Assembly (NCBI GenBank): GCA_964414135.1
Contig: CAYPVI010000002.1
Coordinates: forward strand, 1 to 36,724
From: an uncultured Candidatus Saccharibacteria bacterium
GTDB lineage: Bacteria > Patescibacteriota > Minisyncoccia > Minisyncoccales > GWA2-38-27
Reading direction: 5' to 3'
DNA: 36,724 nucleotides
The translations under genes were made by a program, and so were the position numbers. The stretch's first letter is position 1, and every line of letters starts with the position of its first letter. The notes beneath the pieces were generated by a model. The model made no database searches, was not told the origin of the DNA, and saw nothing but the letters and a program-made list of their open reading frames with translations. Positions 13,836 through 29,347 of this stretch are shown in pieces.

Positions 13836-15383
13836 TTATTTCGTTTCTAAGAAAATAGCTATCATGTCAGCCAAGAATTTGGGTAATAGGTCAAGGAAAG
13901 TTTGGGGCGCCTTTTCCTCAATAATGGGCTTTTCTTCAGAAGAAGGAATTATCGGAATTGTTTCTTCTGAGGATTTTACTTCCTCGGGAGGAGGAATATG
14001 TTCTCCTGGAGTTTTCATCGGCTCGCTTTTATAGGGTTCAATCTCCTCGGGAGGAGGAATATGTTCTCCTGGAGTTTTCATCAGCTCTCCTCTTTGGAAT
14101 CCGCATTCTTCAAAATGTTCTGGTTGGGAACAATATGCCTCGCATTCTTCTTTTGTTATACAACCTCCGGGTCCATAAAATCCTTCTTTAGGCAACGGCA
14201 TCTCACCTGGAAGTATTTCTCCTTCTGTGGGGAATTCATGTCCGCCTTTTATCATTTCTTCTGCTTCTTCGGGAGAAATAAAACCTTGTTCTGTACCGAA
14301 CTTAATACATTCTTCAATATGAATTGGGTCTTTACAATAACTCTCACATTCTTTTTCACCCATACAACCACCGGGTCCGCCTTGTATCATTGTTTCTTTT
14401 TCTTTTGAAGTAATTATTCCCATTTTTTCTCCAAAACCAATACACTCTTGTATATTATCTGGATTTTCACAATATATCTCGCATTCTTCTTTACTTTGGC
14501 AATTGCCAGGGCCAGTGGTAATACCTAATTCAGTCATTTTTAAAGATTGTTCTGCTTCTTCTTCGGTTATAAATCCGGCTTTTAGGGCAAAATCAATGCA
14601 TTCTTGCATATGAGCCAAGTCATTACAATAAGCATTGCATTCCTCCTGGCTATTACATCCGCCCGGGCCCCCGGTTAAACCTGCTTCTAACATTTTCATA
14701 GCCATTTCTGCCTCTTTTTTTGGCATAAGGCCGTATTTATTAGCAAATCGTATACACTCTTGCATATGAGCCGGGTCATCACAATAAGCATCACAAGCCT
14801 TTTTTCCGCAACACCCTCCTGGCGATTCCCCGCCAGTTTTTCTCATCATAATTGCTTCTGATGGAGAAATAAGACCAGCTGCCTCAGCAAAAGAAACGCA
14901 CTCTTCCATATGTGCTGGTCCGCAGCAATAAATATCACATTGTTCTTTTCCGCGGCAATTCGGATGTTTTACTCCTTTTTTAATTCCTGATAATACTTTT
15001 TTCGCTTCTTCAAGCTCCTCCGGAGAAAGAACACCTGCCGCTTCAGCAAAAGCAACGCACATTTCCATATGTTCCGGTTCAGAGCAGTAAATATCACATT
15101 CTGCTTTACTATTGCAGGGGGGCGGCTCTATTCCTTTATTTATAGCAGTAATTATTTTTTTTGATTCCTCAAGTTCTTCTAACGGGATTAAACTATGTCT
15201 TTCGGCAAAATTAATACATTCTTCAAGATGAGAAATATCATCACAATAAACTTTGCATTTTTCCTGGCTGCTACAATCTCCCAATTCAGGAACGGGATAT
15301 CCGATCTCGCTTAGATCTTCAGCTAAAACCAAAAACCCAACAAAAAATAATAAAGATATTATAACAATAAAATATTTTTTCAT
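13836..15383 (-). CDS. Secreted cysteine-rich repeat protein: 8 repeats of C-x5-C-x3-C-x8-C plus helical linker, Pro/Glu-rich tail
   Basis: Signal peptide MKKYFIVIISLLFFVGFLVLA. Eight repeats such as CNSKAECDIYCSEPEHMEMCVAFAEAAGVLSPEELEEAKK. Two MKTPGEHIPPPEE repeats near the C-terminus. Confidence 0.8.
   Translation of the reverse strand: MKKYFIVIISLLFFVGFLVLAEDLSEIGYPVPELGDCSSQEKCKVYCDDISHLEECINFAERHSLIPLEELEESKKIITAINKGIEPPPCNSKAECDIYCSEPEHMEMCVAFAEAAGVLSPEELEEAKKVLSGIKKGVKHPNCRGKEQCDIYCCGPAHMEECVSFAEAAGLISPSEAIMMRKTGGESPGGCCGKKACDAYCDDPAHMQECIRFANKYGLMPKKEAEMAMKMLEAGLTGGPGGCNSQEECNAYCNDLAHMQECIDFALKAGFITEEEAEQSLKMTELGITTGPGNCQSKEECEIYCENPDNIQECIGFGEKMGIITSKEKETMIQGGPGGCMGEKECESYCKDPIHIEECIKFGTEQGFISPEEAEEMIKGGHEFPTEGEILPGEMPLPKEGFYGPGGCITKEECEAYCSQPEHFEECGFQRGELMKTPGEHIPPPEEIEPYKSEPMKTPGEHIPPPEEVKSSEETIPIIPSSEEKPIIEEKAPQTFLDLLPKFLADMIAIFLETK
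13981..14082. repeat. Tandem 63-nt (21-codon) direct repeat inside the Cys-rich gene
   Basis: TCCTCGGGAGGAGGAATATGTTCTCCTGGAGTTTTCATC occurs at 13981-14019 and 14044-14082. Confidence 0.9.
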
Positions 15384-15810: not shown

Positions 15811-17283
15811 CTATCGCAGCTTCTTAACAATACCTCTATTAACATCTACCTCTACTAAATCTCCATCTTTTAATGCTTTGGTTGCTATTTTGGTTCCTAC
15901 CACACAAGGTTTGCCTAATTCCCTACTTACAATAGCTGCATGTGATAATAAACCACCTTCATCGGTCACAACAGCAGCTGATTTTTGCATTACAGAAATA
16001 TAATCTGGACTTGTCATAGAGCAAACTAAAATCTCTCCTTTTTCTAATTTATAAGATTCTTTTGGAGTAAGAATTATTCTAACCCTTCCTTTAACTAAAC
16101 CAGAAGATACTGATTGCCCTTTGATTTCTTTAATATTTTTATCAATCCTACCAACATTTTCATCAATCCATTCAGTAATTTTTTTAGCATTCTCTCCTAC
16201 AATCATTTTTTCTTTTCCATCTTCCATCAAAAAAACATATCCTTCGCTTCTTTCGTCTAACTCTTTGTCTGATGTTTTCAACTTCTCTTGTAAAATATCT
16301 TCAATTTCTCTTGACTTTAGATTATTCCATTGCAAATAATCCACTTCTAATTCCTTGGCAAGTATTTTGTAAAAAGGAATTAGTTTTGAACAAGATCTTA
16401 TAGTTATTTCAACACTAAATGTTAAAAGCCAGCCAAGTTCTCTTGCTTGCTCAATAATAGAAACCAACTCTTCATCTTTTAATTTACCTAAAAGTTTCTC
16501 TGCAGTTTTCTTATTTTCAGTTTTTTGTTTTTCCTGCATTTCATACTGTGAAATAAAATCTTCTTTTAACGCATCTTTAATTCTTTTATCAAGTTCTTGC
16601 ATAGAAAGAGGTTCTAATGGCAAAATAATGAAAGTCTTCATCCATGCATATTGTTTAAGATATTTTTCTGCTTTATCTTTATAATCTTTTTTATCCCTAG
16701 CTAATTTACAGAGTTCAAAAAAATCTTTCTGCTCTTCTTGAAATATTGCTTTTTTCACAGGAAAAGATAAAACAGCAACAGCATTATTTATATCAATAAT
16801 CTTTTCTATGTTTTTATGCTGCAATTTTTCTTTAATTCTATCTGTTATTAAATTATATTCTGCTATATACCATGGAATATAAAACCAAGGAACAACAACC
16901 AACATAATATCGTCTAATCCCTTCCATAACCCAACAATATTCTCTTTAATATAGTTTTCCTTAATAGCATTAACTTTATCTGAAAATGCTTCTAATTCTC
17001 TTATTCTTTTAAGTGTTGATTTAAATATATAATCAACATACTTATCATCTTTTACAGCTTCTTTTAAAGCATTAATAATTTTCTTCTTTTCGTTTGTTTT
17101 AACATAACTTTTATTTAAAGAAGTAAACAAACAATCAAGATTCTCAACGGGAAGTTTAATTTCTTTTTGAAAATTTTTAAATATCGATCTACACCATATA
17201 TCAGACATCAAAATAGTATGTTTATCTCTTTGCCGAAATTCAAATTCCCATTCTTTTAAATTTATATCTGATTTTTTAAGCAT
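15811..17283 (-). CDS. Phosphotransferase subunit: divergent helical N-domain plus C-terminal PEP-utilizer (swivelling phosphohistidine) domain, no ATP-grasp
   Basis: C-terminus ILVCSMTSPDYISVMQKSAAVVTDEGGLLSHAAIVSRELGKPCVVGTKIATKALKDGDLVEVDVNRGIVK matches the PpsA/PPDK/rifampicin-phosphotransferase His-domain signature (GGxxSHAAIxxRE). The ~390-aa N-domain is K/E-rich with no obvious motif apart from KQYAWM. Confidence 0.8.
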   Translation of the reverse strand: MLKKSDINLKEWEFEFRQRDKHTILMSDIWCRSIFKNFQKEIKLPVENLDCLFTSLNKSYVKTNEKKKIINALKEAVKDDKYVDYIFKSTLKRIRELEAFSDKVNAIKENYIKENIVGLWKGLDDIMLVVVPWFYIPWYIAEYNLITDRIKEKLQHKNIEKIIDINNAVAVLSFPVKKAIFQEEQKDFFELCKLARDKKDYKDKAEKYLKQYAWMKTFIILPLEPLSMQELDKRIKDALKEDFISQYEMQEKQKTENKKTAEKLLGKLKDEELVSIIEQARELGWLLTFSVEITIRSCSKLIPFYKILAKELEVDYLQWNNLKSREIEDILQEKLKTSDKELDERSEGYVFLMEDGKEKMIVGENAKKITEWIDENVGRIDKNIKEIKGQSVSSGLVKGRVRIILTPKESYKLEKGEILVCSMTSPDYISVMQKSAAVVTDEGGLLSHAAIVSRELGKPCVVGTKIATKALKDGDLVEVDVNRGIVKKLR

Positions 17284-18820
17284 TTTTCTTTTTTATAATT
17301 TTAACTATTCCTTTATTAGCATCAACTAACACTAAATCTCCATCTTTTAATACTTTGGTTGCTATTTTGGTTCCTACTACGCAGGGCTTCTTAAGCTCTC
17401 TCGAAATAATCGCTGCATGACAGGTAATTCCTCCCTCATCGGTAATTATCGCCTGTGCTTTATTTATACCTTCAATAAATTGAGGTCTTGTCATAGCTGC
17501 TACAAGTATAAAATCCTTTTTCATTTTGTTGGCTTTTTCAACCTGATTTGTAATCTCCGGAGAAATAACCCATACTTTACCCCTTACAAATCCTTTATTA
17601 GCTATCTGACCTTTTAATATTTTAATTTTTGAATAATCTTGTTTAGATATATATCTAGATTCTTCTTTTAATGCCTTTTTACCCGAAAAGAAATGAATCT
17701 TTTTGTTTATCATTAATAATAAACTTTTTTTGATTCTTTTTTCTATTTCTTTTGCGGAAATTTTTATCTTTCCATCAAGAGAATTATAAACTTCATTTTC
17801 CAATAAGTATTCAGAATAATACCAATGAATAAACTTTTTGTTTTTGAGATTAATCCTATTATTTAACTCCTCAAATAGACAGGAAACCCTATAGCTACTT
17901 TCGGTCCACCAAAGCCTTACATTTAATCTTAGTTTTGCTAACGCAGCAACGTTATCTGTCAATTTCAAAAAAGAAGACGAAAACTTATATTTTTTTATAA
18001 TTTTTTTCTTTTCCGTTAATTCTAAGGGAATTCTATTTTCTAAATCGTGTAATCTTTTTTCTATATTTCTTTTTCCTAAAACGAGTAATTCTTTCGTCTT
18101 CTTTATATAATATTTTTCATCAAAAGGAGGGTTGTTTTCCTGGGTAGAAATCCAAGAATAATCATTTATCAAATTAGATAATTTCTTATTCAGATTTTTG
18201 TCCGCTCTAATAAAGCTCTTTGAGAAAACTCTCTTGGAATACTTTTTATTATTTAAGACCGATAGTGTAAAGTTTAATTGAGCTATTTCGTGTTTTGTTA
18301 ATACATTATTTGAAACAGGTTTAGTGAGTTTTGCAAATAATTCATCTCTTTTATTTAAATCAGGTTCTTTAGAAGAAATAACTTTTTTAATTTTTTCATC
18401 TATTTTAATTAAATAATCTGGTCTAGATAAATTATAATAAGCCAAAAGGTTTATGAAAGAATTAAAATATTTATTATAGATATTTTTCAATTCTTTATTA
18501 GTAACTAATGATAAATCTTTTTTATAAATCTCTCTAGATACTCTTAATAGTTTATCTCTTGCTTCATCTGCTTTCTTAATATAGTTTTTAACTTCTTTAT
18601 AATCATTTATAACTTTATCGCCGATGCTTAAAGCTCTTTCAAGTTCTTTTTCATCATAATAAATTGTGCAAACAGCGTTATTTATTGATGTAATCATATG
18701 TTTGCATTCACAGCCAGGAACTTTTGAATGCTCAATATAAGCTCTTGTGTTAGCTTCTAATCTATAAATCGGATGCTTAGCTTCCCAACGTTTCTCAAAT
18801 TTAATATTTTTATTTCTCAT
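17276..18820 (-). CDS. Phosphotransferase subunit paralogue: divergent N-domain plus C-terminal swivelling phosphohistidine domain
   Basis: C-terminus ILVAAMTRPQFIEGINKAQAIITDEGGITCHAAIISRELKKPCVVGTKIATKVLKDGDLVLVDANKGIVK. Its stop overlaps the start of the downstream gene by 8 nt. Confidence 0.8.
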   Translation of the reverse strand: MRNKNIKFEKRWEAKHPIYRLEANTRAYIEHSKVPGCECKHMITSINNAVCTIYYDEKELERALSIGDKVINDYKEVKNYIKKADEARDKLLRVSREIYKKDLSLVTNKELKNIYNKYFNSFINLLAYYNLSRPDYLIKIDEKIKKVISSKEPDLNKRDELFAKLTKPVSNNVLTKHEIAQLNFTLSVLNNKKYSKRVFSKSFIRADKNLNKKLSNLINDYSWISTQENNPPFDEKYYIKKTKELLVLGKRNIEKRLHDLENRIPLELTEKKKIIKKYKFSSSFLKLTDNVAALAKLRLNVRLWWTESSYRVSCLFEELNNRINLKNKKFIHWYYSEYLLENEVYNSLDGKIKISAKEIEKRIKKSLLLMINKKIHFFSGKKALKEESRYISKQDYSKIKILKGQIANKGFVRGKVWVISPEITNQVEKANKMKKDFILVAAMTRPQFIEGINKAQAIITDEGGITCHAAIISRELKKPCVVGTKIATKVLKDGDLVLVDANKGIVKIIKKKNA

Positions 18821-18845
18821 TTTATTAATATTTTATCCAAACCGC

Positions 18846-18874
18846 TTGACAATATTATAATTTAGGTGTATAAT
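18846..18874 (+). promoter_or_regulatory. Near-consensus sigma70 promoter with extended -10 for the phosphatase gene
   Basis: TTGACA (18846-51), 17 nt spacer, (TG)TATAAT (18869-74). AAAGGA ribosome-binding site before the ATG at 18931. Confidence 0.7.
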
Positions 18875-18930
18875 TAAGATAGTACAAAATGCACATATGG
18901 AACTAAGTTTGAATTTGAAAGGATGAAACG

Positions 18931-19389
18931 ATGAATAATATTAAGAAAGTACTGTGTGTCTGCAAAGGTAATGGCGACAGAAGTCCAATGATGGCTGGGG
19001 TTCTCGAGATGTATCTGGATAACGCTATTTCAGATGGTCAAGTTTGTCAAATAGACTGTGAGAGTGCCGGGATTTTGAAAATCGCCAATAATGGCAATGG
19101 AGCATCTCCCCTAATGATTAAGGCAGCAAAACGGATTGGTATTCATCTCTCATCTCATGAAAGACGTTGGGTTAATTCGTTGAATATCAACGATTACGAC
19201 CTTTTCGTCTGCGTAGATGATGAAGTGGCCGCTTATGTGATTGAACTCGGCGCAGACATAAACAAAGTCTGCAATGCCCAAATCAGTAATGCCTGGCCAT
19301 CGCGGTTTCAGAGAGATTTGGATGATACCGCCGAAAGAATCATGGGAGCAATGTTCCGAGTCGTTACTCGATATTTCTCCCGCGAGTGA
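18931..19389 (+). CDS. Low-molecular-weight protein-tyrosine-phosphatase/ArsC-fold protein (CX5R)
   Basis: N-terminal VLCVCKGNGDRSPM fits the LMW-PTP P-loop C-x5-R-S. The usual C-terminal DPYY-type acid loop is not evident. Visibly GC-richer than its neighbours. Confidence 0.6.
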   Translation: MNNIKKVLCVCKGNGDRSPMMAGVLEMYLDNAISDGQVCQIDCESAGILKIANNGNGASPLMIKAAKRIGIHLSSHERRWVNSLNINDYDLFVCVDDEVAAYVIELGADINKVCNAQISNAWPSRFQRDLDDTAERIMGAMFRVVTRYFSRE

Positions 19390-19410
19390 AATCACCAATG
19401 TCACTCATAA

Positions 19411-19450
19411 GCCCAATTGCAACAACGTTTGCGATTGGGCTCTTTTTTTT
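19411..19450 (+). terminator. Rho-independent terminator of the phosphatase gene
   Basis: GCCCAAT (19411-17) ... ATTGGGC (19434-40) followed by TCTTTTTTTT. Confidence 0.8.
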
Positions 19451-19576
19451 ATTTCAAGATTATATATTAATACCTTAGCGAATCAAGGTTCTGCCAAAAG
19501 CAGGGTCTTATTTCAAGATTATATATCTATACGATAGCGAATCAAGGTTCCCCGCCAAGGCGGGGGTTCTTATTTC
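19449..19576. repeat. Two-and-a-bit tandem ~60-nt repeats, each ending in a GC hairpin
   Basis: Unit: TTATTTCAAGATTATATAT..TAGCGAATCAAGGTTC-[CTGCCAAAAGCAGG or CCCGCCAAGGCGGG]-GTTCTTA, at 19449-19507 and 19508-19569. The next TTATTTC overlaps the stop of gene 19570..21708. Confidence 0.85.
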
Positions 19577-21708
19577 CTTTTTAATATTTTAACAATACCT
19601 CTATTAGCATCTACTTCCACCAAATCTCCGTCTTTTAATATTTGGCTTGCTATTTTAGTTCCAACTATACATGGTTTTTTCATCTCTCTTGCTATAATTG
19701 CAGCATGACATGTTAGACCTCCTTCGTCTGTAATAAATGCAGAAGCTTTTTTCATAGCGGGTAAAAAGTCGGGCGTTGTCATTGGAGAGACTAATATTTC
19801 TCCTTTCTTTATCAAATCTATATGTTTATGACCCATTACTCTTTTAACTTTTCCCTTCACAATCCCTTTGTAAACTATGATTCCTTTTATTTCATCTTTT
19901 GATTCTATATTTTCTGTTTCTAATTTAATATTATATTTTTTTTCTACAACATTTCTATTATTACCAATATACATCATATTTTTTGTATAAATAAATCCTT
20001 CGTCTCTCTTTTTTAAATCAGGGATTTTGGGAATTTTTTCACTTTTTATCTCATCAATTTTTAAAACATGAACATAATTCTTTAATTTTGGAAACATTTT
20101 TATTAAAGATTTTCGAACTACAATATCTGTTCCTGTAGAAAGTTTAGTTGTCTTTTTTCGTAATTTCTTTATTGGAGAAATATCTAATCCTCTTAATTCA
20201 TTTTCGTCCATTTCGCATAACCACCACATAGCCTCAATCCAAGGATAGGCGATCTCAAAATTTTTAATGAATTTCAATAAATCTTTTTTTGATAAGGTTT
20301 TTTCACCATCATAAATTGGCTGAATTGGTTTTAATTTTTCTTCAACTTTTTTTTCTAATTTTTCCAAGAATTTTTTATCTTTTTTTATAGTTTCTTTAAT
20401 ATGATTTTTAATCCATTTAACCCCTCTCGGATCATAATAACTCTTTACTGTTCCATCTTCTCTTACAAAAACAATGTATGGCAGGAATGCTTGTTTTTTT
20501 CCACTCCACGGTTTTGAATCATAGGCTTCACCTTTATACCAAACATCTAACATTGGTAAAGAAAAATCTCTTGTGAAAACTTTTTTGTAGATTGGTTTTT
20601 GATTATTCTCTAAAATCTTAACAATACCTCTATTAGCATCTACTTCCACCAAATCTCCATCTTTCAGGACTTTGGTTGCTATTTTTGTTCCAACAACGCC
20701 TGGTATTCTAAATTCTCTACTAAAAACTGCGGCGTGAGAGAGAAAACCACCTTCGTCGGTAATTATAGCTTTGGCTTTTTTTAATATTGGATTGTATTTA
20801 GGTAATGTGGTGGGTGCAACCAAAATATACCCATTTTTGAATTTTATTAATTGTTTTAAATTAGAAATAACCTGAACATATCCTTTTACCCGCTTCTTAT
20901 AAATTGGCGTGCCCTTAAGAATTCTTTCTTCGATGATTTGTCGATTTAGTTTATTTTCCTGATTTTTTAGTTTTTTAAAAAGAATAGAAGCTGACTTTCC
21001 GACCAACAAAAAAGGAGTTGGTAACAATATCAAGGCACTCATACGTTTCCGACTTTCTAAGTTCTTGGGTAATTTATTTATTTTAATAAAATCAATAAAT
21101 TCGTTAATGAGAAGTAATTTTAATAAATCGGGGGATTTTATTTTTCTTTTTTTGGCAATCTTTGCACATATTTTCTCAAAATATTCATCATAAGCTCCGA
21201 GAACATGTTCGTATTTTGTTCGTCTTTTTATTAAAAAATTTGCGATTCTTTTATGTTTTTTAACTCTAGCGATATAATCGATTCCTCTCTGAATAAATGT
21301 ATTGAAAGCACATAGTTTTCCAAAGCTAATATTGAAATCCCTTATAAAGTTGGGGGTTAATTCATTTTTTCCCCCTATTTGTCTATAAAGAGTTAATAGA
21401 TGCTCTGCATATAAGACATGCTGCTCAATTATTCTCTTGCGAAAAGTACGGTTATTGATAATTTTCTCTCCTACAAGTTTTTCAAAACAATTCTCTTCCT
21501 CGTAACTTCTAAAATGCGTTGCTATTCCATTATGATATATACAAATAAATATAGTGAAAGAATCTTTAAACCATTGTCGTGAATTAATAATGTCAAGCGA
21601 TACCTTCCAAGAAGACATCGTAAACAAACTATATTCCCTTTCCCAAAATTTACTTATATTCTCCAAAGTAAGTTTTGGGATTTCCCGTGCTTTCATAAAT
21701 TTCTGCAT
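19570..21708 (-). CDS. Double-module phosphotransferase protein: (N-domain + His swivel domain) x2
   Basis: Two complete His domains. Internal: ITDEGGFLSHAAVFSREFRIPGVVGTKIATKVLKDGDLVEVDANRGIVKILE. C-terminal: ITDEGGLTCHAAIIAREMKKPCIVGTKIASQILKDGDLVEVDANRGIVKILKRK. Confidence 0.8.
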   Translation of the reverse strand: MQKFMKAREIPKLTLENISKFWEREYSLFTMSSWKVSLDIINSRQWFKDSFTIFICIYHNGIATHFRSYEEENCFEKLVGEKIINNRTFRKRIIEQHVLYAEHLLTLYRQIGGKNELTPNFIRDFNISFGKLCAFNTFIQRGIDYIARVKKHKRIANFLIKRRTKYEHVLGAYDEYFEKICAKIAKKRKIKSPDLLKLLLINEFIDFIKINKLPKNLESRKRMSALILLPTPFLLVGKSASILFKKLKNQENKLNRQIIEERILKGTPIYKKRVKGYVQVISNLKQLIKFKNGYILVAPTTLPKYNPILKKAKAIITDEGGFLSHAAVFSREFRIPGVVGTKIATKVLKDGDLVEVDANRGIVKILENNQKPIYKKVFTRDFSLPMLDVWYKGEAYDSKPWSGKKQAFLPYIVFVREDGTVKSYYDPRGVKWIKNHIKETIKKDKKFLEKLEKKVEEKLKPIQPIYDGEKTLSKKDLLKFIKNFEIAYPWIEAMWWLCEMDENELRGLDISPIKKLRKKTTKLSTGTDIVVRKSLIKMFPKLKNYVHVLKIDEIKSEKIPKIPDLKKRDEGFIYTKNMMYIGNNRNVVEKKYNIKLETENIESKDEIKGIIVYKGIVKGKVKRVMGHKHIDLIKKGEILVSPMTTPDFLPAMKKASAFITDEGGLTCHAAIIAREMKKPCIVGTKIASQILKDGDLVEVDANRGIVKILKRK

Positions 21709-21714
21709 AATTTT

Positions 21715-22704
21715 TTATAATGTAGTAATTGGTCTTGATTGTGTTATATATATCTTATTATTTTCTATTGCGAATTCAATGTCTTGAGGACATTTATAAT
21801 GATCTTCTATTTTTTGGCAGAGTTTGGCTAATTGGATGATTTGTTTATTAGGGAGTTTTTGGATTGATTGAGTTTTTTCCGGAACCTCGGTTTCTTTTAT
21901 TCCAGAGCCGGATTTAACCATCATCATTTCTTGATCGCTGATATTAGTATCTATAATAATCCAATTAGATTTATCAATGACATAGGTATCAGGAGTTATT
22001 TTCCCTCCGACAATGGCTTCTCCGAGTCCCCAGCCCGTCTCAATGACCATTTGATTTGTATCTTGAGTAACAGGATGAACAGTAAAACAAATGCCAGACA
22101 CATCTGATTGAATCATTTTCTGGATTACTACTGCTACACCTACTGGATAACAATGAGCTAATTTTTTGCAAGTATTAGCTCTAATCTTTTTCTGACCGCC
22201 AATAGTAATTACTTTCTTTTCAAAGGCATAAAATAAAGCTCTTGGAGTAAATAAAGAAGACCAGCAATTCTTAATATTGTCTATTAAATTAGAGCTGGAA
22301 GTATTCAAATATGTTTCTAACTCCCCTGCCCAAGATGCCACTGAAGAATCTTCAGCAGTTGCTGAAGAACGAACTGCAACGTATTTAGCATTTAGTTTCT
22401 TAAATTCTTTCAGAAACTCCTTTTCTAAGTCCTTTGGAACAGAAGCATCATGAATTAAATCTCTAATAACATTAGATGCTTTGTCTGCAGAATTAATATC
22501 TTTAAAATTAATCTGTTTTATTTGGCTGGCTATTTCAACCACTAAATCGGTTTCCTCTAAAAACTTATCAAACGCCTCAACTAAAATAATAAAACCCGGC
22601 GGTACCTGAATTTTAGCTTGAGTCATCTCTCCAAGCGAAGCTCCCTTGCCACCAGCAATTAAAATATCGTTTTTAGATATTTGCTTAAATGTTTTTGTGA
22701 ACAT
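21715..22704 (-). CDS. Stand-alone ATP-grasp nucleotide-binding domain of the PEP synthase/PPDK/rifampicin-phosphotransferase family (PPDK_N type)
   Basis: ILIAGGKGASLGEM, VAVRSSATAEDSSVASWAGELETYLN, VAVVIQKMIQSDVSGICFTVHP, ETGWGLGEAIVGGKITPDTY, DIEFAIENNKIYITQSRPIT. The ORF ends exactly where this domain normally ends. Confidence 0.85.
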   Translation of the reverse strand: MFTKTFKQISKNDILIAGGKGASLGEMTQAKIQVPPGFIILVEAFDKFLEETDLVVEIASQIKQINFKDINSADKASNVIRDLIHDASVPKDLEKEFLKEFKKLNAKYVAVRSSATAEDSSVASWAGELETYLNTSSSNLIDNIKNCWSSLFTPRALFYAFEKKVITIGGQKKIRANTCKKLAHCYPVGVAVVIQKMIQSDVSGICFTVHPVTQDTNQMVIETGWGLGEAIVGGKITPDTYVIDKSNWIIIDTNISDQEMMMVKSGSGIKETEVPEKTQSIQKLPNKQIIQLAKLCQKIEDHYKCPQDIEFAIENNKIYITQSRPITTL

Positions 22705-22717
22705 TATCTTATTCTAA
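22662..22717. repeat. 56-nt exact duplicate (copy 1) covering upstream region, ATG and first 14 codons
   Basis: AAATATCGTTTTTAGATATTTGCTTAAATGTTTTTGTGAACATTATCTTATTCTAA, identical to 24223-24278. Confidence 0.95.
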
Positions 22718-24265
22718 TAATTTTACAATTCCTTTGTTTGTATCGACCTCAATTAAATCTCCTGTTTTAAATACTTCGGTTGCGAAATTTGTTCCAACAA
22801 TGCAGGGTTTTTTAAACTCCCTAGATACAATTGCAGCGTGAGATAATATCCCTCCCTTATCTGTCACTATTGCCTTTGATTTCTGCATTGCTCTTTCAAA
22901 ATCTACTGTAGTCTCTGGAGCAATAAGAATATCTTTTTCGGTTATTTTATTTGCTTCTTTTGCACTTAAGGCTATAAACACCCTCCCACTTATCTTTTCT
23001 TCACACTTGTAGGTCGTGGTCCCTCTAACTGAATTAATATTAGAGTAGTCTTTGGCGAAAATATTATTTTTAATTCTCTGATACTTTTCTCCTACTATTA
23101 ATTCTAGCTTGTTTTTATACAAAATCATTCCCCATCCCTTTTTTCTCTCTTTTATTTTGATTTTTAGTGAACTTTGATTTGATAAACCTTTAATTATTTC
23201 TGGAGGAGTTAGATAAAGAAGGTTTTCATATCTAAGTGACAATCTTTCAGCTATATGTTTCAAAAAATCAAAAGCATAATAGTTAGAAATATTAATCATA
23301 TCTATCCTATATGTTCTCTGGAAAGCAAACTCTCTAAAAAAATAAAAGAAAGAAATATCCTGTTTAGAGATATTCAATTTTTTGATTAGAGATTTTATAT
23401 TATTTTCTCTTTTTCTTCTTTCTTGAGTTAATTTTTTTAATTCTTTAATACAATCTTTTATTAAAAGCTCTTTCAAGTCTTCTAAGAATTTATTAGTAGA
23501 ATAGTGTTTACCCCTCATAAATACAACTCCCATCCAGGAATACTTTTTTTGATGTAGTTTTATTTCTTTTCGCAGGCTCTTAGGAAAATCTTTTAATTTC
23601 AACCTTTGTATCTTTTGTTTATTTTTAGAAAAAAATGTGGTTTTCTGTATGTCTGTTGCCAGTTCTAATAATTCTCTTTTTTCTTCAAATGAAAACGGCT
23701 CGGGATTAGGCTCGCCTAATCTTAAAAGATATTCCGGTATCTTTTTATTTTCTATTTTATTCTTTTCTAGAACATTTTTTAATTTATTAGTTAGAAACTT
23801 TTCAAACAGCGAAAGCGTGTTAACAAAAGGCATAATTCTCAAAATAGTAGAAACATAATTATTGAAAATCTGGCTCAGCTCTTTTTGGCTATACTTTTTT
23901 AAATCTTTTATAGATTTAATTTTCTTAGAGTGGTCAACACAAAGTTCACAGTTTTTATTAAGAAGTTCCATGTATTTACCTAAAAAAGCTTTATCTTTTT
24001 TAAGAACTTGTATTACATAATTATCTGTTTTTTCATACTCATTATAATCAACGTATTCTGCACGGTCAAAATTAAGCATTATTTTCATTTTATAACTTTG
24101 TTTTACCTCTTTCTTGGATAAAGGATTTCTTTGAGAATCAAACTGTAAATATTTCATTAAAATACAATCATTGTACTGAGAAAATTTGTACCAGTTTATT
24201 GTTTTAAAAAATTTCAAGCTAGAAATATCGTTTTTAGATATTTGCTTAAATGTTTTTGTGAACAT
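22709..24265 (-). CDS. Phosphotransferase subunit paralogue: divergent N-domain plus C-terminal His swivel domain, with first 14 aa duplicated from the ATP-grasp gene
   Basis: C-terminus ILIAPETTVDFERAMQKSKAIVTDKGGILSHAAIVSREFKKPCIVGTNFATEVFKTGDLIEVDTNKGIVK. N-terminus MFTKTFKQISKNDI is identical to that of 21715..22704. Confidence 0.8.
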   Translation of the reverse strand: MFTKTFKQISKNDISSLKFFKTINWYKFSQYNDCILMKYLQFDSQRNPLSKKEVKQSYKMKIMLNFDRAEYVDYNEYEKTDNYVIQVLKKDKAFLGKYMELLNKNCELCVDHSKKIKSIKDLKKYSQKELSQIFNNYVSTILRIMPFVNTLSLFEKFLTNKLKNVLEKNKIENKKIPEYLLRLGEPNPEPFSFEEKRELLELATDIQKTTFFSKNKQKIQRLKLKDFPKSLRKEIKLHQKKYSWMGVVFMRGKHYSTNKFLEDLKELLIKDCIKELKKLTQERRKRENNIKSLIKKLNISKQDISFFYFFREFAFQRTYRIDMINISNYYAFDFLKHIAERLSLRYENLLYLTPPEIIKGLSNQSSLKIKIKERKKGWGMILYKNKLELIVGEKYQRIKNNIFAKDYSNINSVRGTTTYKCEEKISGRVFIALSAKEANKITEKDILIAPETTVDFERAMQKSKAIVTDKGGILSHAAIVSREFKKPCIVGTNFATEVFKTGDLIEVDTNKGIVKLLE

Positions 24266-24278
24266 TATCTTATTCTAA
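24223..24278. repeat. 56-nt exact duplicate (copy 2)
   Basis: Identical to 22662-22717. Confidence 0.95.
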
Positions 24279-24300
24279 CAAAAAACCGCCATTCCGTCAC
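24272..24300 (-). promoter_or_regulatory. Candidate promoter giving a leaderless transcript for gene 22709..24265
   Basis: Minus strand: GTGACG-17 nt-TAGAAT-AAGATA-ATG. With 6 nt between the -10 and the ATG, the A of the ATG falls at about +1. Confidence 0.4.
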
Positions 24301-24511: not shown

Positions 24512-24904
24512 TTATTCCTCCTTTAATTTATTATTATTTTTTTCTTTAAAATTAGCATCGTACCCTCCTAAATAAATGTTGGTGTGCTTATTTTTGGTTT
24601 TCTCAATTGGAAATCTTCTTTCATTATCTTTTATTGTAAAATTAATTGCTTCGTCCATATCAACATCACAGCTATTAGCAAGCAATGATAAAAACCACAA
24701 AATATCTCCTACTGTATCTTTTACCTGATCTTTATTCTTAAACAAAACGCTTTTTATAACTTCTGGATTTTGTTCCCATTTTATAATATTCCTAAATTCT
24801 CCAACCTCTTCTACAATGCCCAATAAAAGATCCTTAGGATTATGGAATTGTGCCCAATTCCTTTCCTCGCAAAACTTCTTAATCTTTTTTTGATATTCAT
24901 TCAT
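24512..24904 (-). CDS. MazG-like nucleoside triphosphate pyrophosphohydrolase (all-alpha NTP-PPase)
   Basis: FCEERNWAQFHNPKDLLLGIVEEVGEF (ExxE) and GDILWFLSLLANSCDVDMDEAI, typical of the small MazG/dCTPase-like family. Confidence 0.75.
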   Translation of the reverse strand: MNEYQKKIKKFCEERNWAQFHNPKDLLLGIVEEVGEFRNIIKWEQNPEVIKSVLFKNKDQVKDTVGDILWFLSLLANSCDVDMDEAINFTIKDNERRFPIEKTKNKHTNIYLGGYDANFKEKNNNKLKEE

Positions 24905-24940
24905 AATAATTTATTAATTTATAATTTCTTAATTTTCTTT

Positions 24941-25378
24941 CTACTCAATAAACTCACTATAAATTATTTTATTTTTTATATGATTTATTGCTTCTTTTAT
25001 ATAAGGAATTACATTATCTGGTATATTACCTAAATCAAACCAAGACAAATCATCGCATTTATTTGGTTCTTTATTCTCAATGTTTCCGGTCCATTTTTCA
25101 GCTACAAAAAAGACATCAATCCTTTCATTGCCTTTGATATTTCTATTCATAACATGCACAACGCTCAGATCTTCGGATTGAAGTGTTATACCTGCCTCCT
25201 CTTTCACCTCCCTAATTATCGCTTCAGTAAAAGTCTCTCCCTTATCTACATGACCCGCAACAAGACTATACTTCCCGTCTTCATAACCAGTATTAAAACG
25301 TCTCTGAAGTAATATTTTATTACCTCCAATTAAAACTAAATAAGAAGCCGGTGTAATTTTATGTCTTTCTTTTTTCAT
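24941..25378 (-). CDS. NUDIX hydrolase
   Basis: Perfect Nudix box GHVDKGETFTEAIIREVKEEAGI (G-x5-E-x7-REUxEExGU). Confidence 0.88.
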   Translation of the reverse strand: MKKERHKITPASYLVLIGGNKILLQRRFNTGYEDGKYSLVAGHVDKGETFTEAIIREVKEEAGITLQSEDLSVVHVMNRNIKGNERIDVFFVAEKWTGNIENKEPNKCDDLSWFDLGNIPDNVIPYIKEAINHIKNKIIYSEFIE

Positions 25379-25424
25379 AATTTCTTAATCTTTTAAACAA
25401 ATCTAACCTTATTTTTCATCATAA

Positions 25425-25453
25425 CAAAAAATCGCCATTTTGGCGATTTTTTA
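25425..25453. terminator. Bidirectional terminator of the AAAAAATCGCC..GGCGATTTTTT family
   Basis: AAAAAATCGCCATTTTGGCGATTTTTT. Confidence 0.7.
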
Positions 25454-25544
25454 AAGAGAAAAAGGGGTCAGGAACGGTTTTTTATTCAACTTCATCCCCT
25501 GCGAATCTTTAAAAACTAAGTCTAAAATCAAGGAGCTAAGCTAA

Positions 25545-25580
25545 AAGAAAAACCCCTTAATATAATTCTCAGGGGTTTAA
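25545..25580 (-). terminator. Rho-independent terminator downstream of gene 25589..25879
   Basis: AACCCCT (25551-57) pairs with AGGGGTT (25571-77). On the minus strand it is followed by TTTCTTTT. Confidence 0.65.
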
Positions 25581-25588
25581 AAGATTGT

Positions 25589-25879
25589 TTAGATTGCTTC
25601 GGTAAAAAAAGCTCCGCTTATGAAAAACAATCCTAATTCTGTGGCAATCTTATAAAAATCTTCTTTTATGTTTTCGGCCTTATCTAACTCAGCTCCCACC
25701 ATTATAATTGTATGTATTCCAGCATAAGTTGAATTAGAAATGAAAATAATATATAGTTTATCTTTCAAAAATCTGATTAAATATTTTCCTCTCTCGCTAT
25801 CAATACTACCTCTTTCTTTATCTATTTTCTTTTGCTTACTCTCATCGAGAACAAAAGTTTGATAAATCATGTTCGCCAT
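25589..25879 (-). CDS. Hypothetical protein (96 aa)
   Basis: ORF with an AAGGAG SD 7 nt upstream of the ATG, plus its own promoter and terminator. No recognisable motif. Confidence 0.55.
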   Translation of the reverse strand: MANMIYQTFVLDESKQKKIDKERGSIDSERGKYLIRFLKDKLYIIFISNSTYAGIHTIIMVGAELDKAENIKEDFYKIATELGLFFISGAFFTEAI

Positions 25880-25935
25880 TTTCTATCTCCTTTTATTTTA
25901 GAAACCATATTTTCAATTTTTTAATTTACTACCTA

Positions 25936-25964
25936 CACCATACACCCATTATTTAAATATGTCA
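25936..25964 (-). promoter_or_regulatory. Sigma70-type promoter for gene 25589..25879
   Basis: Minus strand: TTGACA-17 nt-(TGt)ATGGT. Roughly 50-nt leader containing the SD. Confidence 0.5.
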
Positions 25965-26085
25965 ACCCCAAAGGTGAGATAGTCCAAAAACAACCCTGTT
26001 TGCGTTGACGACTGTCGTCAATTATCTAAAAAATAAGGGGGCGTTGAGGTCAAGTTGCCCAAGAAAGGTCGACCTTCCCAAAAAT

Positions 26086-26119
26086 AAAAACCTAAAACGC
26101 TTTCAGCGCTTAGGTTTTT
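26086..26119 (-). terminator. Terminator downstream of tRNA-Ala
   Basis: AAAAACCTAAAACGC-TTTC-AGCGCTTAGGTTTTT. Closely related in sequence to the 15704-15737 hairpin. Confidence 0.65.
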
Positions 26120-26124
26120 GTTTG

Positions 26125-26195
26125 TGGACCCAGCGAGAGTCGAACTCGCGATTCCTCTATGCCATAGAGGTGTTTTACCACTATACTATGGGCCC
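26125..26195 (-). tRNA. tRNA-Ala (anticodon GGC)
   Basis: Minus strand: GGGCCCA-TA-GTAT-AGTGGTA-AAAC-A-CCTCT-ATGGCAT-AGAGG-AATC-GCGAG-TTCGACT-CTCGC-TGGGTCC-A. Has the G3:U70 alanine identity pair, a T-loop TTCGA, and no encoded CCA. Confidence 0.88.
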
Positions 26196-26233
26196 AAAAG
26201 ATGAAGAGTAGTATCTTTTTCCTAGTATAGATA

Positions 26234-26986
26234 CTACTCTCCTTCGTCGGCTAATTCTAAAAGATGAGTTACAACTTGTTGAGTTAGTTCTTCCCTTGAT
26301 AGAGCGCTATCAAATCTTACGATTTCTCCTATTTTGATAACAACTTTGTTCCATAAACGTGGAAAGGAATAAAACCGACCTGGTAAATTTGGCATCACCT
26401 TGTCTGAATCATCAATCCATACAAAGAGCACAGAAGCTTTTGTTCTTTTAACTAATGAACCAATCCCTTCTTTTAAATGTCTGAGTTTTTTCCCTTCTTT
26501 AGGACTATAAAATAAATCTTTTTCTGACGCAGACGATGTTCTTCCACCTTCGGGGTACATAATCAGTATTTTGCCTGAATTAACAACGTTTACTGATTTT
26601 ATAAAAGCGGCTCTCATTGATTGTTTATTACCTCTTTCAACCCAAATCATTATTTGTTCCGCCCATTTCCAATACCATTTGTTGTAATTTTTTACTTCAG
26701 GGATATTGTAAGGAGCAAACTTAAATGGATTAATAATATATTGGTCCCCAAATAAACAAGAGACAAGGAAGGGATCTATCAAAGATGGATGATTGCTAGC
26801 CACTATTAATCCATTCTTGAATAAATTTGGATTTTGCCAATGTTTTGGAAAACGTTCAGGATGTACTATTTTAATTCTTCCAGTTAGTCTTTGAAAAAAG
26901 AATATCATAGTAATCCAAAGTCCAATCGTATACACAATCAGTAAAAATCTTAACTTATAGCCAATGCTTTCTTTTTTCGCTTTCAT
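26234..26986 (-). CDS. plsC: 1-acyl-sn-glycerol-3-phosphate (lysophospholipid) acyltransferase
   Basis: N-terminal TM segment. HX4D motif (VASNHPSLIDP) and MYPEGGRT block. Confidence 0.8.
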   Translation of the reverse strand: MKAKKESIGYKLRFLLIVYTIGLWITMIFFFQRLTGRIKIVHPERFPKHWQNPNLFKNGLIVASNHPSLIDPFLVSCLFGDQYIINPFKFAPYNIPEVKNYNKWYWKWAEQIMIWVERGNKQSMRAAFIKSVNVVNSGKILIMYPEGGRTSSASEKDLFYSPKEGKKLRHLKEGIGSLVKRTKASVLFVWIDDSDKVMPNLPGRFYSFPRLWNKVVIKIGEIVRFDSALSREELTQQVVTHLLELADEGE

Positions 26987-27032
26987 TTTTCTATCCTTTC
27001 AAAATGTCAATGAGCAAAACTAATTATTTATT

Positions 27033-27061
27033 ATATTACCCCATTCCCCAAAATTTTTCAA
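27033..27061 (-). promoter_or_regulatory. Candidate promoter for plsC
   Basis: Minus strand: TTGAAA-17 nt-TAATAT. AAGGA SD before the ATG. Confidence 0.45.
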
Positions 27062-27077
27062 CTCTGCTTAGCGGGAC

Positions 27078-27107
27078 CAAAAAAATCCCGAGCGAAACTC
27101 GGGATTT
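27078..27107 (-). terminator. Rho-independent terminator downstream of the maf/NDT-like pair
   Basis: AAATCCCGAG-CGAAA-CTCGGGATTT, followed by T7 on the minus strand. Confidence 0.75.
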
Positions 27108-27153
27108 ATGAAAAAGTAATAAAAATTTTTATAATATAAACTCCTCAAAAGAA

Positions 27154-27582
27154 TTATTGAATCTTACTTAAATCTCCTTTTAAAATAACATCAGCCATTG
27201 CTTTTATTTCATCAACATACGGGGCTTCTTCTGGTATAGGGTTTAATAAAAATACTTTTTTGTTATTAACGTGAGCAAAACCAATTTCTATCAAAGTGTT
27301 GCCTCCAATATAGTTTTTTATTCCATTTTTATCATAATTCAAAACCAAAATACCGTCACTATTTTTTATAGAATCATACCACCATTTTATATAACCATAC
27401 TTTCTTTTAATCTCACTGTGTTCTATATTATTCCTAATATCTTCTAATTCTTTTGCTGTTCCATCTGCAACTCCAAACATATCTTCATGCATCATTGGCT
27501 GATGACCTAATTTCTCCAATTCTTGATAAGCATTAACAAGCTTATCGGCAAATTTTATACTTCCGCAAAGTGTAATTTTCAT
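27154..27582 (-). CDS. Nucleoside 2-deoxyribosyltransferase-like / dNMP N-glycosidase-like protein
   Basis: MKITLCGSIKF start (Rossmann-like beta1) and GGNTLIEIGFAHVNNKKVFLL (conserved Glu-x-Gly-x-Ala block), as in the NDT/Rcl-like fold. Assigned by resemblance only. Confidence 0.45.
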   Translation of the reverse strand: MKITLCGSIKFADKLVNAYQELEKLGHQPMMHEDMFGVADGTAKELEDIRNNIEHSEIKRKYGYIKWWYDSIKNSDGILVLNYDKNGIKNYIGGNTLIEIGFAHVNNKKVFLLNPIPEEAPYVDEIKAMADVILKGDLSKIQ

Positions 27583-27594
27583 AATTAAAAAAGA

Positions 27595-28182
27595 TTAATG
27601 TTCTTCTTTATAACCAATTTCTTTTAATATTTCAACTATCGTTTCCAACGGAATGCCTCCTAAAAGATTATGGTAACTTCCTTCTATTCTCTTCACAAAT
27701 GAAGCGCTGTAATGCTTTATAGGATCATATCCTAAAGCATAAGTATTAAAATTAGGGTCTTCATTAAGGTATCTATTAATTTCTTCTTCAGAAAGCTCTC
27801 TCATAAAAACATCTGTTTTAACAATTTTTGAGATTATCTTGCCTGAAATTGTGTTAATCATATGGACTCCTGTGTAGAATTGATGGTTATTTCCGGAAAA
27901 AGCTTTTAATCTTTGGAAATCTTCTTCTTTTGATTTGGGTTTTTCGAAAATTTGACCGTTAAAGAAACCAACAGAATCCATTCCGATAACAATGGCGTCT
28001 GAATGATTCTCTGCTACTGCCTCGGCCTTCAATCTTGAAAGTCCTTTTATTAATTCTTCGGGATTATTTCTTCTTAATTGAGATTCGTCTACATCGCTTC
28101 CTTCTGCTTCAAAAGGAATTCCCAAATATCCAAATGTTTCCCTGCGATAAGGCGAAATTGTAGCTAAAATTATTTTTGTCAT
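27595..28182 (-). CDS. maf: Maf-family nucleoside triphosphate pyrophosphatase
   Basis: KIILATISPYRRETFGYLGIPFEAEGSDVDE is the Maf N-terminal signature. I prefer the ATG at 28182. The track ORF extends to a TTG at 28218 through a terminator/promoter module. Confidence 0.78.
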   Translation of the reverse strand: MTKIILATISPYRRETFGYLGIPFEAEGSDVDESQLRRNNPEELIKGLSRLKAEAVAENHSDAIVIGMDSVGFFNGQIFEKPKSKEEDFQRLKAFSGNNHQFYTGVHMINTISGKIISKIVKTDVFMRELSEEEINRYLNEDPNFNTYALGYDPIKHYSASFVKRIEGSYHNLLGGIPLETIVEILKEIGYKEEH

Positions 28183-28189
28183 ATATCTT

Positions 28190-28218
28190 ATTCTATCAAA
28201 AAATCGCCTCTTTGGCAA
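28190..28218 (-). promoter_or_regulatory. Candidate promoter giving a (near-)leaderless maf transcript
   Basis: Minus strand: TTGCCA-17 nt-TAGAAT-AAGATAT-ATG. The -35 box lies inside the AAAATTGCC..GGCGATTTTTT hairpin. Confidence 0.45.
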
Positions 28219-28237
28219 TTTTACTGTTTATGTTTAA

Positions 28238-28762
28238 TTAAAGTTCATACTCCCAATATGGTTGCCATTTGAACGACACGCTTAAGCACTCTTCAAGAGT
28301 TTTACCGCCAGCAAGCGTATCTAAACCAAATTGAGTAGCACGATGACCAACAACTAAAACTATCTTATCTGGATACTTTTCTTTTAATTCTTTATAAAAA
28401 TTGTGAACCCTAATCATTGCTTGCTTATAGCTTTCTCCATTTGGAAAGGGTTGTTTTATTCTCTCTTTCTTCATGTAACCTACAATGTCGCTTGGTTTGC
28501 CGTTAAAATCACCGTAATTTAACTCTCTCAGTCTTTTATCAATGATTACGGGTATTTTATCTCCAAAAGCTATTTTTACAGTATTAACTGCTCTCTTTAA
28601 ATCGGAACAGCAGATTAAATTTATTTTTATATCTTTGAATTTCTTTCCCATTTCTTTGGCTTGTTCAATACCAAGTTTGGATAATTCAACATTTTTCCAA
28701 CCAGAAGCTATTCCCGCTTCATTATCCTTAGTTGTTGCGTGAGCTGCAAAGTAGATTTTCAT
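28238..28762 (-). CDS. Histidine phosphatase superfamily (phosphoglycerate-mutase-like) protein, atypical N-terminal motif
   Basis: MKIYFAAHATTKDNE aligns to the RHGET/Q..N motif with Arg replaced by Ala. Also LICCSDLKRAVNT, LRELNYGDFNGK and VVGHRATQ blocks. Confidence 0.6.
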   Translation of the reverse strand: MKIYFAAHATTKDNEAGIASGWKNVELSKLGIEQAKEMGKKFKDIKINLICCSDLKRAVNTVKIAFGDKIPVIIDKRLRELNYGDFNGKPSDIVGYMKKERIKQPFPNGESYKQAMIRVHNFYKELKEKYPDKIVLVVGHRATQFGLDTLAGGKTLEECLSVSFKWQPYWEYEL

Positions 28763-28774
28763 ATACGCATTAAT

Positions 28775-29347
28775 TTATTGTTCTTCATATTTTACTTCTT
28801 CTGGAAATAGTAATTGAAATGGATAACCCATATATCTTTTTATCTTCCCACATCCCATGTCTTTAAGGAAAGCTACCATTTCTTCGGTGATTTTCTTAGG
28901 GTCAACTTTCTCCTCTTTACCAATATATTCAATTTCTACAAAATCCCCAAGTTCCTTTATCGAATCCATAGCAATTTCATAATTTTTATATATCCAAGTT
29001 TTCCTTAACTTATAAACTTTTACAATAGATTTAAAATTAAGAGCTTCTAATATTTTTTTAATTTGAGCTAAATCTTCCGTTTTTGTTTCGTGTTCATCAC
29101 AATAGCACCCTTTACCATCTTCATTAGAATGCCAATTTTTATAGTTTATGAAATACTGGCCGTCCGAATCTCTTAATCTTAACCATTCTTTTACTGGACG
29201 AACCCCGATGAAATTACGATGAGCCGGAGAAAAATACTCATCTATTTGATAATTTTCTGACCGAAAACCGGCATTCTTTTCTAAGAACTCTATTAGTGGT
29301 TTGCTATTTTCAATTTTTACTTGAATTTCTATTTCAATATTGTTCAT
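28775..29347 (-). CDS. CYTH-domain protein (class IV adenylate cyclase / triphosphate tunnel metalloenzyme-like)
   Basis: N-terminal EIEIQVKI (ExExK-like), WLRLRDSDG, and GDFVEIEY near the C-terminus. Confidence 0.7.
   Translation of the reverse strand: MNNIEIEIQVKIENSKPLIEFLEKNAGFRSENYQIDEYFSPAHRNFIGVRPVKEWLRLRDSDGQYFINYKNWHSNEDGKGCYCDEHETKTEDLAQIKKILEALNFKSIVKVYKLRKTWIYKNYEIAMDSIKELGDFVEIEYIGKEEKVDPKKITEEMVAFLKDMGCGKIKRYMGYPFQLLFPEEVKYEEQ

Follow-up and report, generated by a model that had tools for sequence, protein, structure and literature searches.

The subject of this analysis is a 36,724-nucleotide stretch of DNA (hereafter the window; contig CAYPVI010000002.1, assembly GCA_964414135.1) from an uncultured Candidatus Saccharibacteria bacterium and, within it, an array of five minus-strand genes, D, G, C, B and A, in which one stand-alone ATP-grasp domain accompanies five phosphohistidine swivel domains. 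An initial annotation, made from the sequence alone, had likened this arrangement to a rifampicin phosphotransferase (RPH) divided into separate modules. The five open reading frames (ORFs) were confirmed at the coordinates proposed there and are listed below, "N-domain" denoting the region that precedes each His swivel.

22709-24265, minus strand: D, 518 aa, N-domain and His swivel (Pfam PEP-utilizers, E 4.8e-22)
21715-22704, minus strand: G, 329 aa, stand-alone ATP-grasp subunit (PPDK_N, PF01326, residues 16-328, E 6.7e-94)
19570-21708, minus strand: C, 712 aa, two-module protein (two Pfam PEP-utilizers domains, E 5.7e-51)
20593-21708, minus strand: C1, first module of C (residues 1-372), N-domain then His swivel
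19570-20592, minus strand: C2, second module of C (residues 373-712), N-domain then His swivel
17276-18820, minus strand: B, 514 aa, N-domain and His swivel (Pfam PEP-utilizers, E 1.1e-24)
15811-17283, minus strand: A, 490 aa, N-domain predicted to resemble a rifampicin-binding domain (residues 1-385) and His swivel (386-490; PEP-utilizers, E 6.1e-26)

Domain content and base composition of the array

Pfam, a hidden Markov model (HMM) of the swivel and phmmer agree on this inventory. When the swivel HMM, and phmmer with G as the query, were applied to all six-frame ORFs of the 36.7 kb window, exactly five swivels and one ATP-grasp domain were found. The swivels (PF00391) are distributed over four proteins, with a single PEP-utilizers domain at the C-terminus of each of A, B and D, and the array is broken by one plus-strand gene of the low-molecular-weight (LMW) phosphatase family. 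G supplies the only nucleotide-binding domain of the PPDK_N family in the window and contains no other Pfam domain; its motifs GGKGASLGEM, VAVRSSATAEDS and DIEFAI..QSRPIT are all present, and the signature TD[EK]GG..[SC]HAA, with the catalytic His, is retained in all five swivels, in agreement with the superfamily motif T/S-x-x-G-G-x-x-x-H. The residues before this His vary, B and C2 having the T-C-H (G-G-x-T-C-H) typical of phosphoenolpyruvate (PEP) synthase and A, C1 and D having L-S-H. The short motif Y[AS]W[MI], previously described as shared between the copies, does occur in A, B and D but is absent from both C1 and C2. Gaps of only 4 nt between D and G and 6 nt between G and C, together with an 8-nt overlap of B and A, indicate two operon-like blocks. 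The array genes recur intact in independent metagenome assemblies.

No PEP/pyruvate triosephosphate isomerase (TIM) barrel (PEP-utilizers_C) was detected in the window ORFs scanned or in the annotation of identical contigs, in keeping with the earlier statement that the array encodes neither PEP synthase nor pyruvate phosphate dikinase (PPDK), and a split form of either enzyme was rejected on this ground. The ATP-grasp and swivel domains nevertheless find their closest sequence matches in PEP synthase (PpsA), nearer than RPH, and the G-G-x-T-C-H motif of B and C2 is a further likeness. In PEP synthase and PPDK, however, the TIM barrel is present and the swivel directly follows the ATP-grasp domain, whereas the swivels of the array are C-terminal and follow a helical domain. 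Scores of the array proteins against NCBIfam PEP synthase models fall far below cut-off; G aligns to the N-terminal ~330 positions of the PEP synthase and RPH models, again with all scores below cut-off. The best 120 database homologues of G are without exception stand-alone proteins (120/120, 257-382 aa) containing PF01326 only, indicating that the split state is stable. The possibility of an anti-phage defence system was also considered and set aside, PADLOC defence-system models giving zero matches for the six proteins tested.

The GC content of the array is 29.9%, compared with 33-34% for its flanks, and the earlier description of the locus as unusually AT-rich is correct to this extent. 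The deficit lies entirely in the N-domains (25-30%), however, with G at 33.8%, the swivels at 33-36% and the phosphatase gene at 43.8%; low GC is a property of the Lys/Asn/Ile-rich N-domains only.

Folds of the N-domains and comparison with characterised enzymes

The N-domains are of highly divergent sequence, but BLAST reveals homology amongst A, B and D that reaches well past the swivel (A with D, 33% over 325 aa; B with D, 29% over 425 aa). An alignment of 50 A-type proteins was used as the basis of an AlphaFold2 model of A, which was obtained with a predicted local distance difference test (pLDDT) score of 93.7 and a predicted template-modelling (pTM) score of 0.91. Foldseek comparison of this model with the PDB returned six structures of Listeria RPH (RPH-Lm; including 5fbu, 5fbt, 5hv1 and 5fbs, at 2e-14 to 1e-12) as the top matches, with E-values of 2e-14 to 2e-11 overall; the alignments span 570-600 columns, corresponding to the rifampicin-binding domain plus the swivel, with TM-scores of 0.52-0.56, and all remaining PDB matches are restricted to the swivel. 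The model of C2 (pLDDT 94.4) likewise finds RPH-Lm first (E 1.3e-12), with ~266 of 340 residues aligned. On the evidence of these models, the N-domain of A has the rifampicin-binding-domain fold over its whole length, and that of C2 is a shortened version of the same domain. Sequence identity to RPH-Lm in the two structure comparisons is 15-23%, and both models have a common topology of N-terminal strand, helix, beta-hairpin, helical bundle, second hairpin and swivel. Comparison at the level of structure was needed to recognise the N-domain, the A-family sequence profile detecting only the swivel and ~70 residues upstream of it in the PDB.

For B and D, the relationship was traced by profile alignment. 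Residues 7-513 of B align along the entire A-family profile (E 4.5e-39) and residues 123-518 of D align to the same profile (E 3.3e-45), suggesting that both N-domains are related to the A family and hence to the rifampicin-binding domain. The RPH-like domain logic proposed in the initial annotation is in this way borne out structurally for A and, in reduced form, for C2, and by profile alignment for B and D. Several residues are conserved between or within the module families: an Arg located just before the pre-swivel beta-hairpin is found in all five modules (in the A family it is R345, which does not vary, and in the C2 family R196), and in the A family Q18 is near-invariant, R19 is invariant and an A-R-E-L-G-W motif occurs ~25-30 residues ahead of the region that aligns to RPH 697-708. 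In RPH the substrate-domain contacts to phosphate are made by Gln337 (block 1) and by Arg666-Glu667 together with Lys670 (block 9) (PMC4844700). Q18-R19 of A and its A-R-E motif could correspond to Gln337 and Arg666-Glu667.

By architecture and predicted fold, the array belongs to the RPH-like dikinase superfamily. Its domain order, once G and a module are joined, is that of RPH (5HV1, 5FBS/T/U; PMC4844700), with which it also shares the swivel motif; in RPH, however, the three domains occupy one polypeptide, whereas here they are divided between separate ORFs, the modules are multiplied and fused forms are found in other organisms only. Scores against the NCBIfam RPH models (for NF041857, RIF_Ptrans_rph, 38-121 bits for the swivel proteins and 240 bits for G, with a cut-off of 999; for NF000283, 26-83 and 160 bits, with a cut-off of 1700) are so far below threshold as to indicate that the array is not a rifampicin enzyme.

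The nearest characterised parallels are the two-component RPH-like dikinases PpsAB (phenylphosphate synthase), CreHI (4-cresol kinase) and HpeHI (hydroxyphenylethanone kinase) (PMC12167813), so that the splitting of such an enzyme, which had earlier been presented as a novelty, was already known; the new part is the one-to-many arrangement. As in the array, these systems have a separate ATP-grasp subunit of ~37-40 kDa and a second subunit composed of a domain resembling the rifampicin-binding domain and a C-terminal His swivel, encoded by side-by-side genes, and both presumably rely on transient charging in trans with conversion of ATP to AMP and inorganic phosphate (Pi). The characterised systems, however, consist of genes paired 1:1 within clusters for aromatic catabolism, and their acceptor subunits of ~70 kDa share ~45% identity with one another, whereas in the array one ATP-grasp gene lies among five acceptor modules of 340-518 aa; no catabolic genes were found in the window. 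PRK08296 sub-models align to the last ~110-130 residues only of the array proteins, scoring 80-118 bits for each single-module protein and 195 for C against cut-offs of 578-730. If PRK08296-type models (~600 aa) are representative of the PpsA/CreH/HpeH acceptor group, as was assumed, the acceptor subunits of the array would appear to lie outside that sequence family.

A conceptual likeness also exists to Enzyme I of the phosphotransferase system (PTS), in which one energy-coupling phosphohistidine enzyme, with a homologous swivel, serves several substrate-specific modules. The PTS differs in that its donor is PEP rather than ATP and its phosphate is carried by HPr and EII proteins, which have no counterpart in the array, where specificity would lie in the domain attached to each swivel. 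A search of the accessible literature returned no description of multi-partner or multi-swivel dikinases in the Candidate Phyla Radiation (CPR) or DPANN, although this is not proof of absence.

One ATP-grasp subunit among many swivel modules

Swivel domains were counted within 10 kb of each stand-alone G homologue. Relatives with a stand-alone G have between one and eight swivels by this measure, so that the one-to-many layout, which the initial annotation had described, recurs in relatives, amongst ultra-small bacteria and archaea: to the five of the present window can be compared three in L001, L006 and L009, two in L002 and L004, one in L007, six in L008, eight plus a fragment in the Nealsonbacteria locus L003, and four, in three genes, in the sister-species locus L025. 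In L010, one fused gene is accompanied by five more swivel genes.

Natural fusions provide a second line of comparison. G-C2 polypeptides of ~660 aa have a C-terminal half 68-76% identical to C2, and G-A polypeptides of ~820 aa recreate the architecture of RPH; longer proteins take the form G-C2-A (1166-1199 aa; P0264, P0287 and P0288), G-D-C2 (P0263, P0290 and P0294) or G-C2-C2 (P0242), and fusions without an ATP-grasp domain (C2-A and A-C2) are also found. These Rosetta-stone proteins, amongst them polypeptides that combine one G-type ATP-grasp domain with two types of module, are the best available evidence that one ATP-grasp domain works with more than one swivel module, and with the layout of relatives they lend strong comparative support to the earlier idea of a shared ATP-grasp subunit, which is probably right.

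Selection was assessed against L025, in which G is 91% identical and the chromosomal context is the same. Values of dN/dS are 0.16 for G, 0.26 for A and 0.22 for C2, compared with 0.09-0.30 for the flanking housekeeping genes; the array genes are under purifying selection and, contrary to the earlier description of a fast-evolving locus, change at rates similar to those of their neighbours. It is gene content that changes quickly. L025 lacks D, B, the phosphatase gene, NUDIX and MazG, and has an extra module of 379 aa; in its gene C the C2 part is 94% identical to that of the window whilst the first module is a different one (37% identity). In metagenome-assembled genomes (MAGs) with a G that is 86% identical, the partner N-domains are only 30-47% identical to those of the window. 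A-, C2-, B- and D-type modules are, moreover, old families found across CPR and DPANN, a distribution that runs counter to the proposal that the partners arose here by duplication. The families are also diverse in sequence. Proteins orthologous to A, ~500 aa in length, are present in CPR as well as in Nanoarchaeota (40-50% identity), and many of their residues are invariant; a search with the A N-domain of 1.84 billion cluster representatives gave only 108 matches, of which 32 were strong. Taken together, these comparisons indicate that diversity is generated by gain, loss and swapping of old module families rather than by fast substitution. We conclude that the array is a genuine multi-acceptor variant of an enzyme kind already known, and that it is conserved and maintained by selection.

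The G homologues of L004, L006, L007 and L008 (59-63% identity) belong to records titled "uncultured Gammaproteobacteria" or "Bdellovibrionales"; either the system reaches beyond Patescibacteria or these bins are mislabelled.

We consider it likely that the array is a split, multi-acceptor "substrate, water dikinase" of the RPH/PpsAB type, in which G would be the sole nucleotide-binding module for D, C1, C2, B and A. In the mechanism envisaged, ATP would be bound by stand-alone G; in a transient encounter the beta-phosphate would move from G to the catalytic His of a swivel, with release of AMP and Pi; the charged swivel would swing back to the helical N-domain of its own polypeptide; and the phosphate would there be passed to a bound acceptor, most likely at a hydroxyl group. 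Whereas the domain identities, the predicted folds of A and C2, conservation, purifying selection, the recurrent layout and the fusions are observed, the charging of every module by G in trans is inferred, as are the dikinase stoichiometry and the chemistry at the acceptor. A precedent is HpeHI, for which activity requires both components and the His, no stable complex is formed and the rate is linear in each component (PMC12167813). The last two properties indicate transient charging in trans, and such collisional behaviour would let one charging subunit serve several partners. In terms of recurrence, C2 and then A look like conserved core partners, with B, C1 and D as a variable accessory repertoire that is gained, lost and swapped.

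A number of observations weigh against this interpretation. Proximity and fusions tie G most directly to C2 and A, the link to B, C1 and D consisting of co-location and of weaker matches (27-39% identity) to modules of fusion proteins. In C1 only the last ~190 residues align to the A and C2 family profiles, the first 177 matching nothing in either. In D, the N-terminal Arg that is otherwise conserved is missing, as is the Pro of M-T-x-P, and D may work differently or not at all; its swivel is also the most divergent, with at most 52% identity to any other. A shared ATP-grasp partner might be expected to leave a trace of co-adaptation or gene conversion amongst the swivels of a genome, yet mean swivel identity is 52.3% within and 51.3% between genomes (permutation p = 0.14). 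Finally, the Nanoarchaeota locus L023 (8673-12581) contains two adjacent swivel genes (443 and 505 aa), the second encoding an A-type orthologue, with no ATP-grasp gene within 10 kb, from which it follows that partners can be encoded apart from G or that modules can be used without it.

An alternative is that only gene C, chiefly through C2, is the partner of G in an ordinary 1:1 two-component dikinase, the other modules acting without G, either as transphosphorylases between phosphorylated and unphosphorylated compounds or after charging by another donor. C does follow G directly, no other module is found fused to the ATP-grasp domain nearly so often as C2 or is so well conserved in the fusions, HpeH alone is able to move phosphate from 4-phosphoacetophenone to acetovanillone (PMC12167813), and the swivel genes of L023 have no ATP-grasp gene nearby. 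We nevertheless regard so restricted a partnership as unlikely: the G-A, G-C2-A and G-D-C2 fusions join A- and D-type modules to a single ATP-grasp domain, D is situated just upstream of G in the same operon-like block, as many as eight modules recur around one G in relatives, and the His motif needed for charging is kept in each of the five modules. A protein-level phosphorelay or regulatory system resembling PTS Enzyme I, with protein or polymer targets and the LMW phosphatase acting in opposition, would draw on the common ancestry of the swivel, on the embedding of an LMWPc gene both here and in L003, on a phosphatase-like gene that follows the swivel genes of L023 and on the membership in this family of glucan water dikinases, which act on polymers. 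Its probability appears low, however, as the predicted fold of the N-domains is that of the rifampicin-binding domain of small-molecule dikinases and not that of HPr-binding or carbohydrate-binding modules, the phosphatase gene is missing from nearly all related arrays, that of the sister species included, and has its own consensus promoter, its own terminator and a foreign GC content, and domain scans of the window revealed no HPr-like or EII-like genes.

That the genes might be remnants, in decay, of one or several RPH-like genes that were once full-length fusions was also considered, given the existence of fused full-length relatives and of a 59-nt repeat (see below) that marks recent rearrangement at the D/G junction. 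We attach almost no weight to this explanation, and pseudogene decay was rejected, because all ORFs are intact in several independent assemblies, dN/dS shows no relaxation of selection relative to the housekeeping neighbours, the closest homologues of G are uniformly stand-alone, and orthologues of A retain their length and invariant residues across both CPR and DPANN.

If, as the multi-acceptor interpretation holds, one ATP-grasp subunit charges many modules, then two-component dikinases would be extended from 1:1 pairs to a branching, plug-in architecture. A broader proposal, which we advance tentatively and to which we give slightly less credence than doubt, is that CPR and DPANN possess a modular phosphorylation platform, in which one ATP-grasp "charger" would work with a set of interchangeable His-swivel modules, encoded either as separate genes or as strings of 1000-1500 aa; the conserved C2 and A modules would bind conserved acceptors, perhaps metabolites scavenged from the host, and the variable modules would bind strain-specific compounds such as host-derived toxins or antibiotics. 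Were this so, the system would be an ATP-driven analogue of the branching logic of the PTS, and ultra-small symbionts would have in it an extensive enzyme system of their own, hitherto uncharacterised. Genomes are tiny and metabolism is sparse in Patescibacteria and DPANN, yet many of these organisms keep several of these paralogues under purifying selection, with up to eight genes per locus, which suggests that the chemistry matters for a host-dependent lifestyle. The compounds accepted by the conserved modules C2 and A might bring to light a new step in the salvage or detoxification of metabolites by these uncultivated symbionts.

Gene D, the embedded phosphatase gene and the surrounding chromosome

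Further features of the array region are as follows.

24223-24281, minus strand: 59-nt direct repeat, upstream copy, covering the start of D (14 codons and the region before them)
22662-22720, minus strand: 59-nt direct repeat, downstream copy, running from the final codons of D, stop included, across the 4-nt spacer to codon 14 of G
18931-19389, plus strand: LMW phosphatase/ArsC-family gene (Pfam LMWPc, E 2.3e-9; CX5R-S loop CKGNGDRS)
18846-18874, plus strand: promoter of the phosphatase gene, perfect TTGACA-17-TATAAT (a match to the sigma-70 consensus)
19410-19441: strong terminator of the phosphatase gene, 13-bp stem
19449-19566: tandem pair of 59-nt repeat units (family D5, 78% identity), lying between the phosphatase gene and C, which converge here

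The two copies of the direct repeat at D and G are 98% identical. What precedes G, together with the first 14 codons of the gene, is found again at the head of D, which thus appears to borrow the start region of G. An assembly artefact was ruled out as the source of the repeat and of the duplicated D start by the presence of the same sequence in the independent assembly L020 and in independent Joint Genome Institute (JGI) contigs. In close relatives no gene lies upstream of G, and D is missing from the closest other species; together with the duplication, this indicates that D was placed there recently. D is homologous to the D-type modules of fusion proteins from residue 24 onwards; this speaks for translation from the upstream, duplicated ATG rather than from M37, the start that gene callers selected. 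A value of dN/dS could not be computed for D, as the only sequences near enough for comparison are almost the same, differing by one synonymous change. The upstream repeat copy contains a -10-like TAGAAT (a consensus match only) 6 nt before the ATG, a spacing that might indicate a very short or absent leader.

The phosphatase gene, with its own promoter and terminator and a GC content of 43.8% within an array of ~30%, has the appearance of an independently acquired cassette. A close homologue (E 4e-76) interrupts the Nealsonbacteria array L003 in the same way, at 18259-18747 and opposite in strand, and a functional link between phosphatase and array is possible; the gene is absent from the remaining loci scanned and from L025. 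LMW phosphatase, NUDIX and MazG were considered as conserved partners of the array but gained no support, the phosphatase recurring in L003 only and all three being missing from L025; with its foreign GC content, the phosphatase gene gives no support for a fixed role in the array either. In the convergent intergenic region, the second of the tandem D5 units ends in a GC-rich hairpin (19549-19566) that was scored as terminator-like. The gene that follows the two swivel genes of L023 encodes a protein of 345 aa with no Pfam match, which starts with R-H-S, a motif that recalls histidine phosphatases.

Upstream of the array, on the minus strand at 24512-29347, lies a group of nucleotide "house-cleaning" and phosphatase genes (MazG-like, NUDIX, Maf, His_Phos_1 and CYTH). 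In L025 the genes for NUDIX, MazG and His_Phos_1 are missing, and a pair encoding helix-turn-helix (HTH) and SocA_Panacea proteins adjoins G. On the other side of the array, a minus-strand gene at 13836-15383 encodes a protein of 515 aa in which a hydrophobic segment at the N-terminus is accompanied by ~8 Cys-rich repeats (C..C..YC..P.HM.EC..FA), for which Pfam gave no match and which is missing at the syntenic position of L025.

The window is otherwise an ordinary Patescibacteria chromosome, with ribosomal RNA (rRNA) genes and genes for MreCD, PBP2, GluRS, UppS, CTP synthase, L9 and DnaK/DnaJ/GrpE, and the closest genome records are Patescibacteria and Nealsonbacteria MAGs. A tyrosine recombinase of the XerC/D type or integrase type (Phage_integrase with a SAM-like N-domain) is encoded at 6343-7302 on the plus strand. 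The 3' end of the 23S rRNA occupies positions 1-800, and these 800 nt cover only model positions 2448-2925 (478 nt), implying ~320 additional nucleotides that possibly represent an rRNA insertion or intron of the kind common in CPR; the 5S rRNA follows at 886-994.

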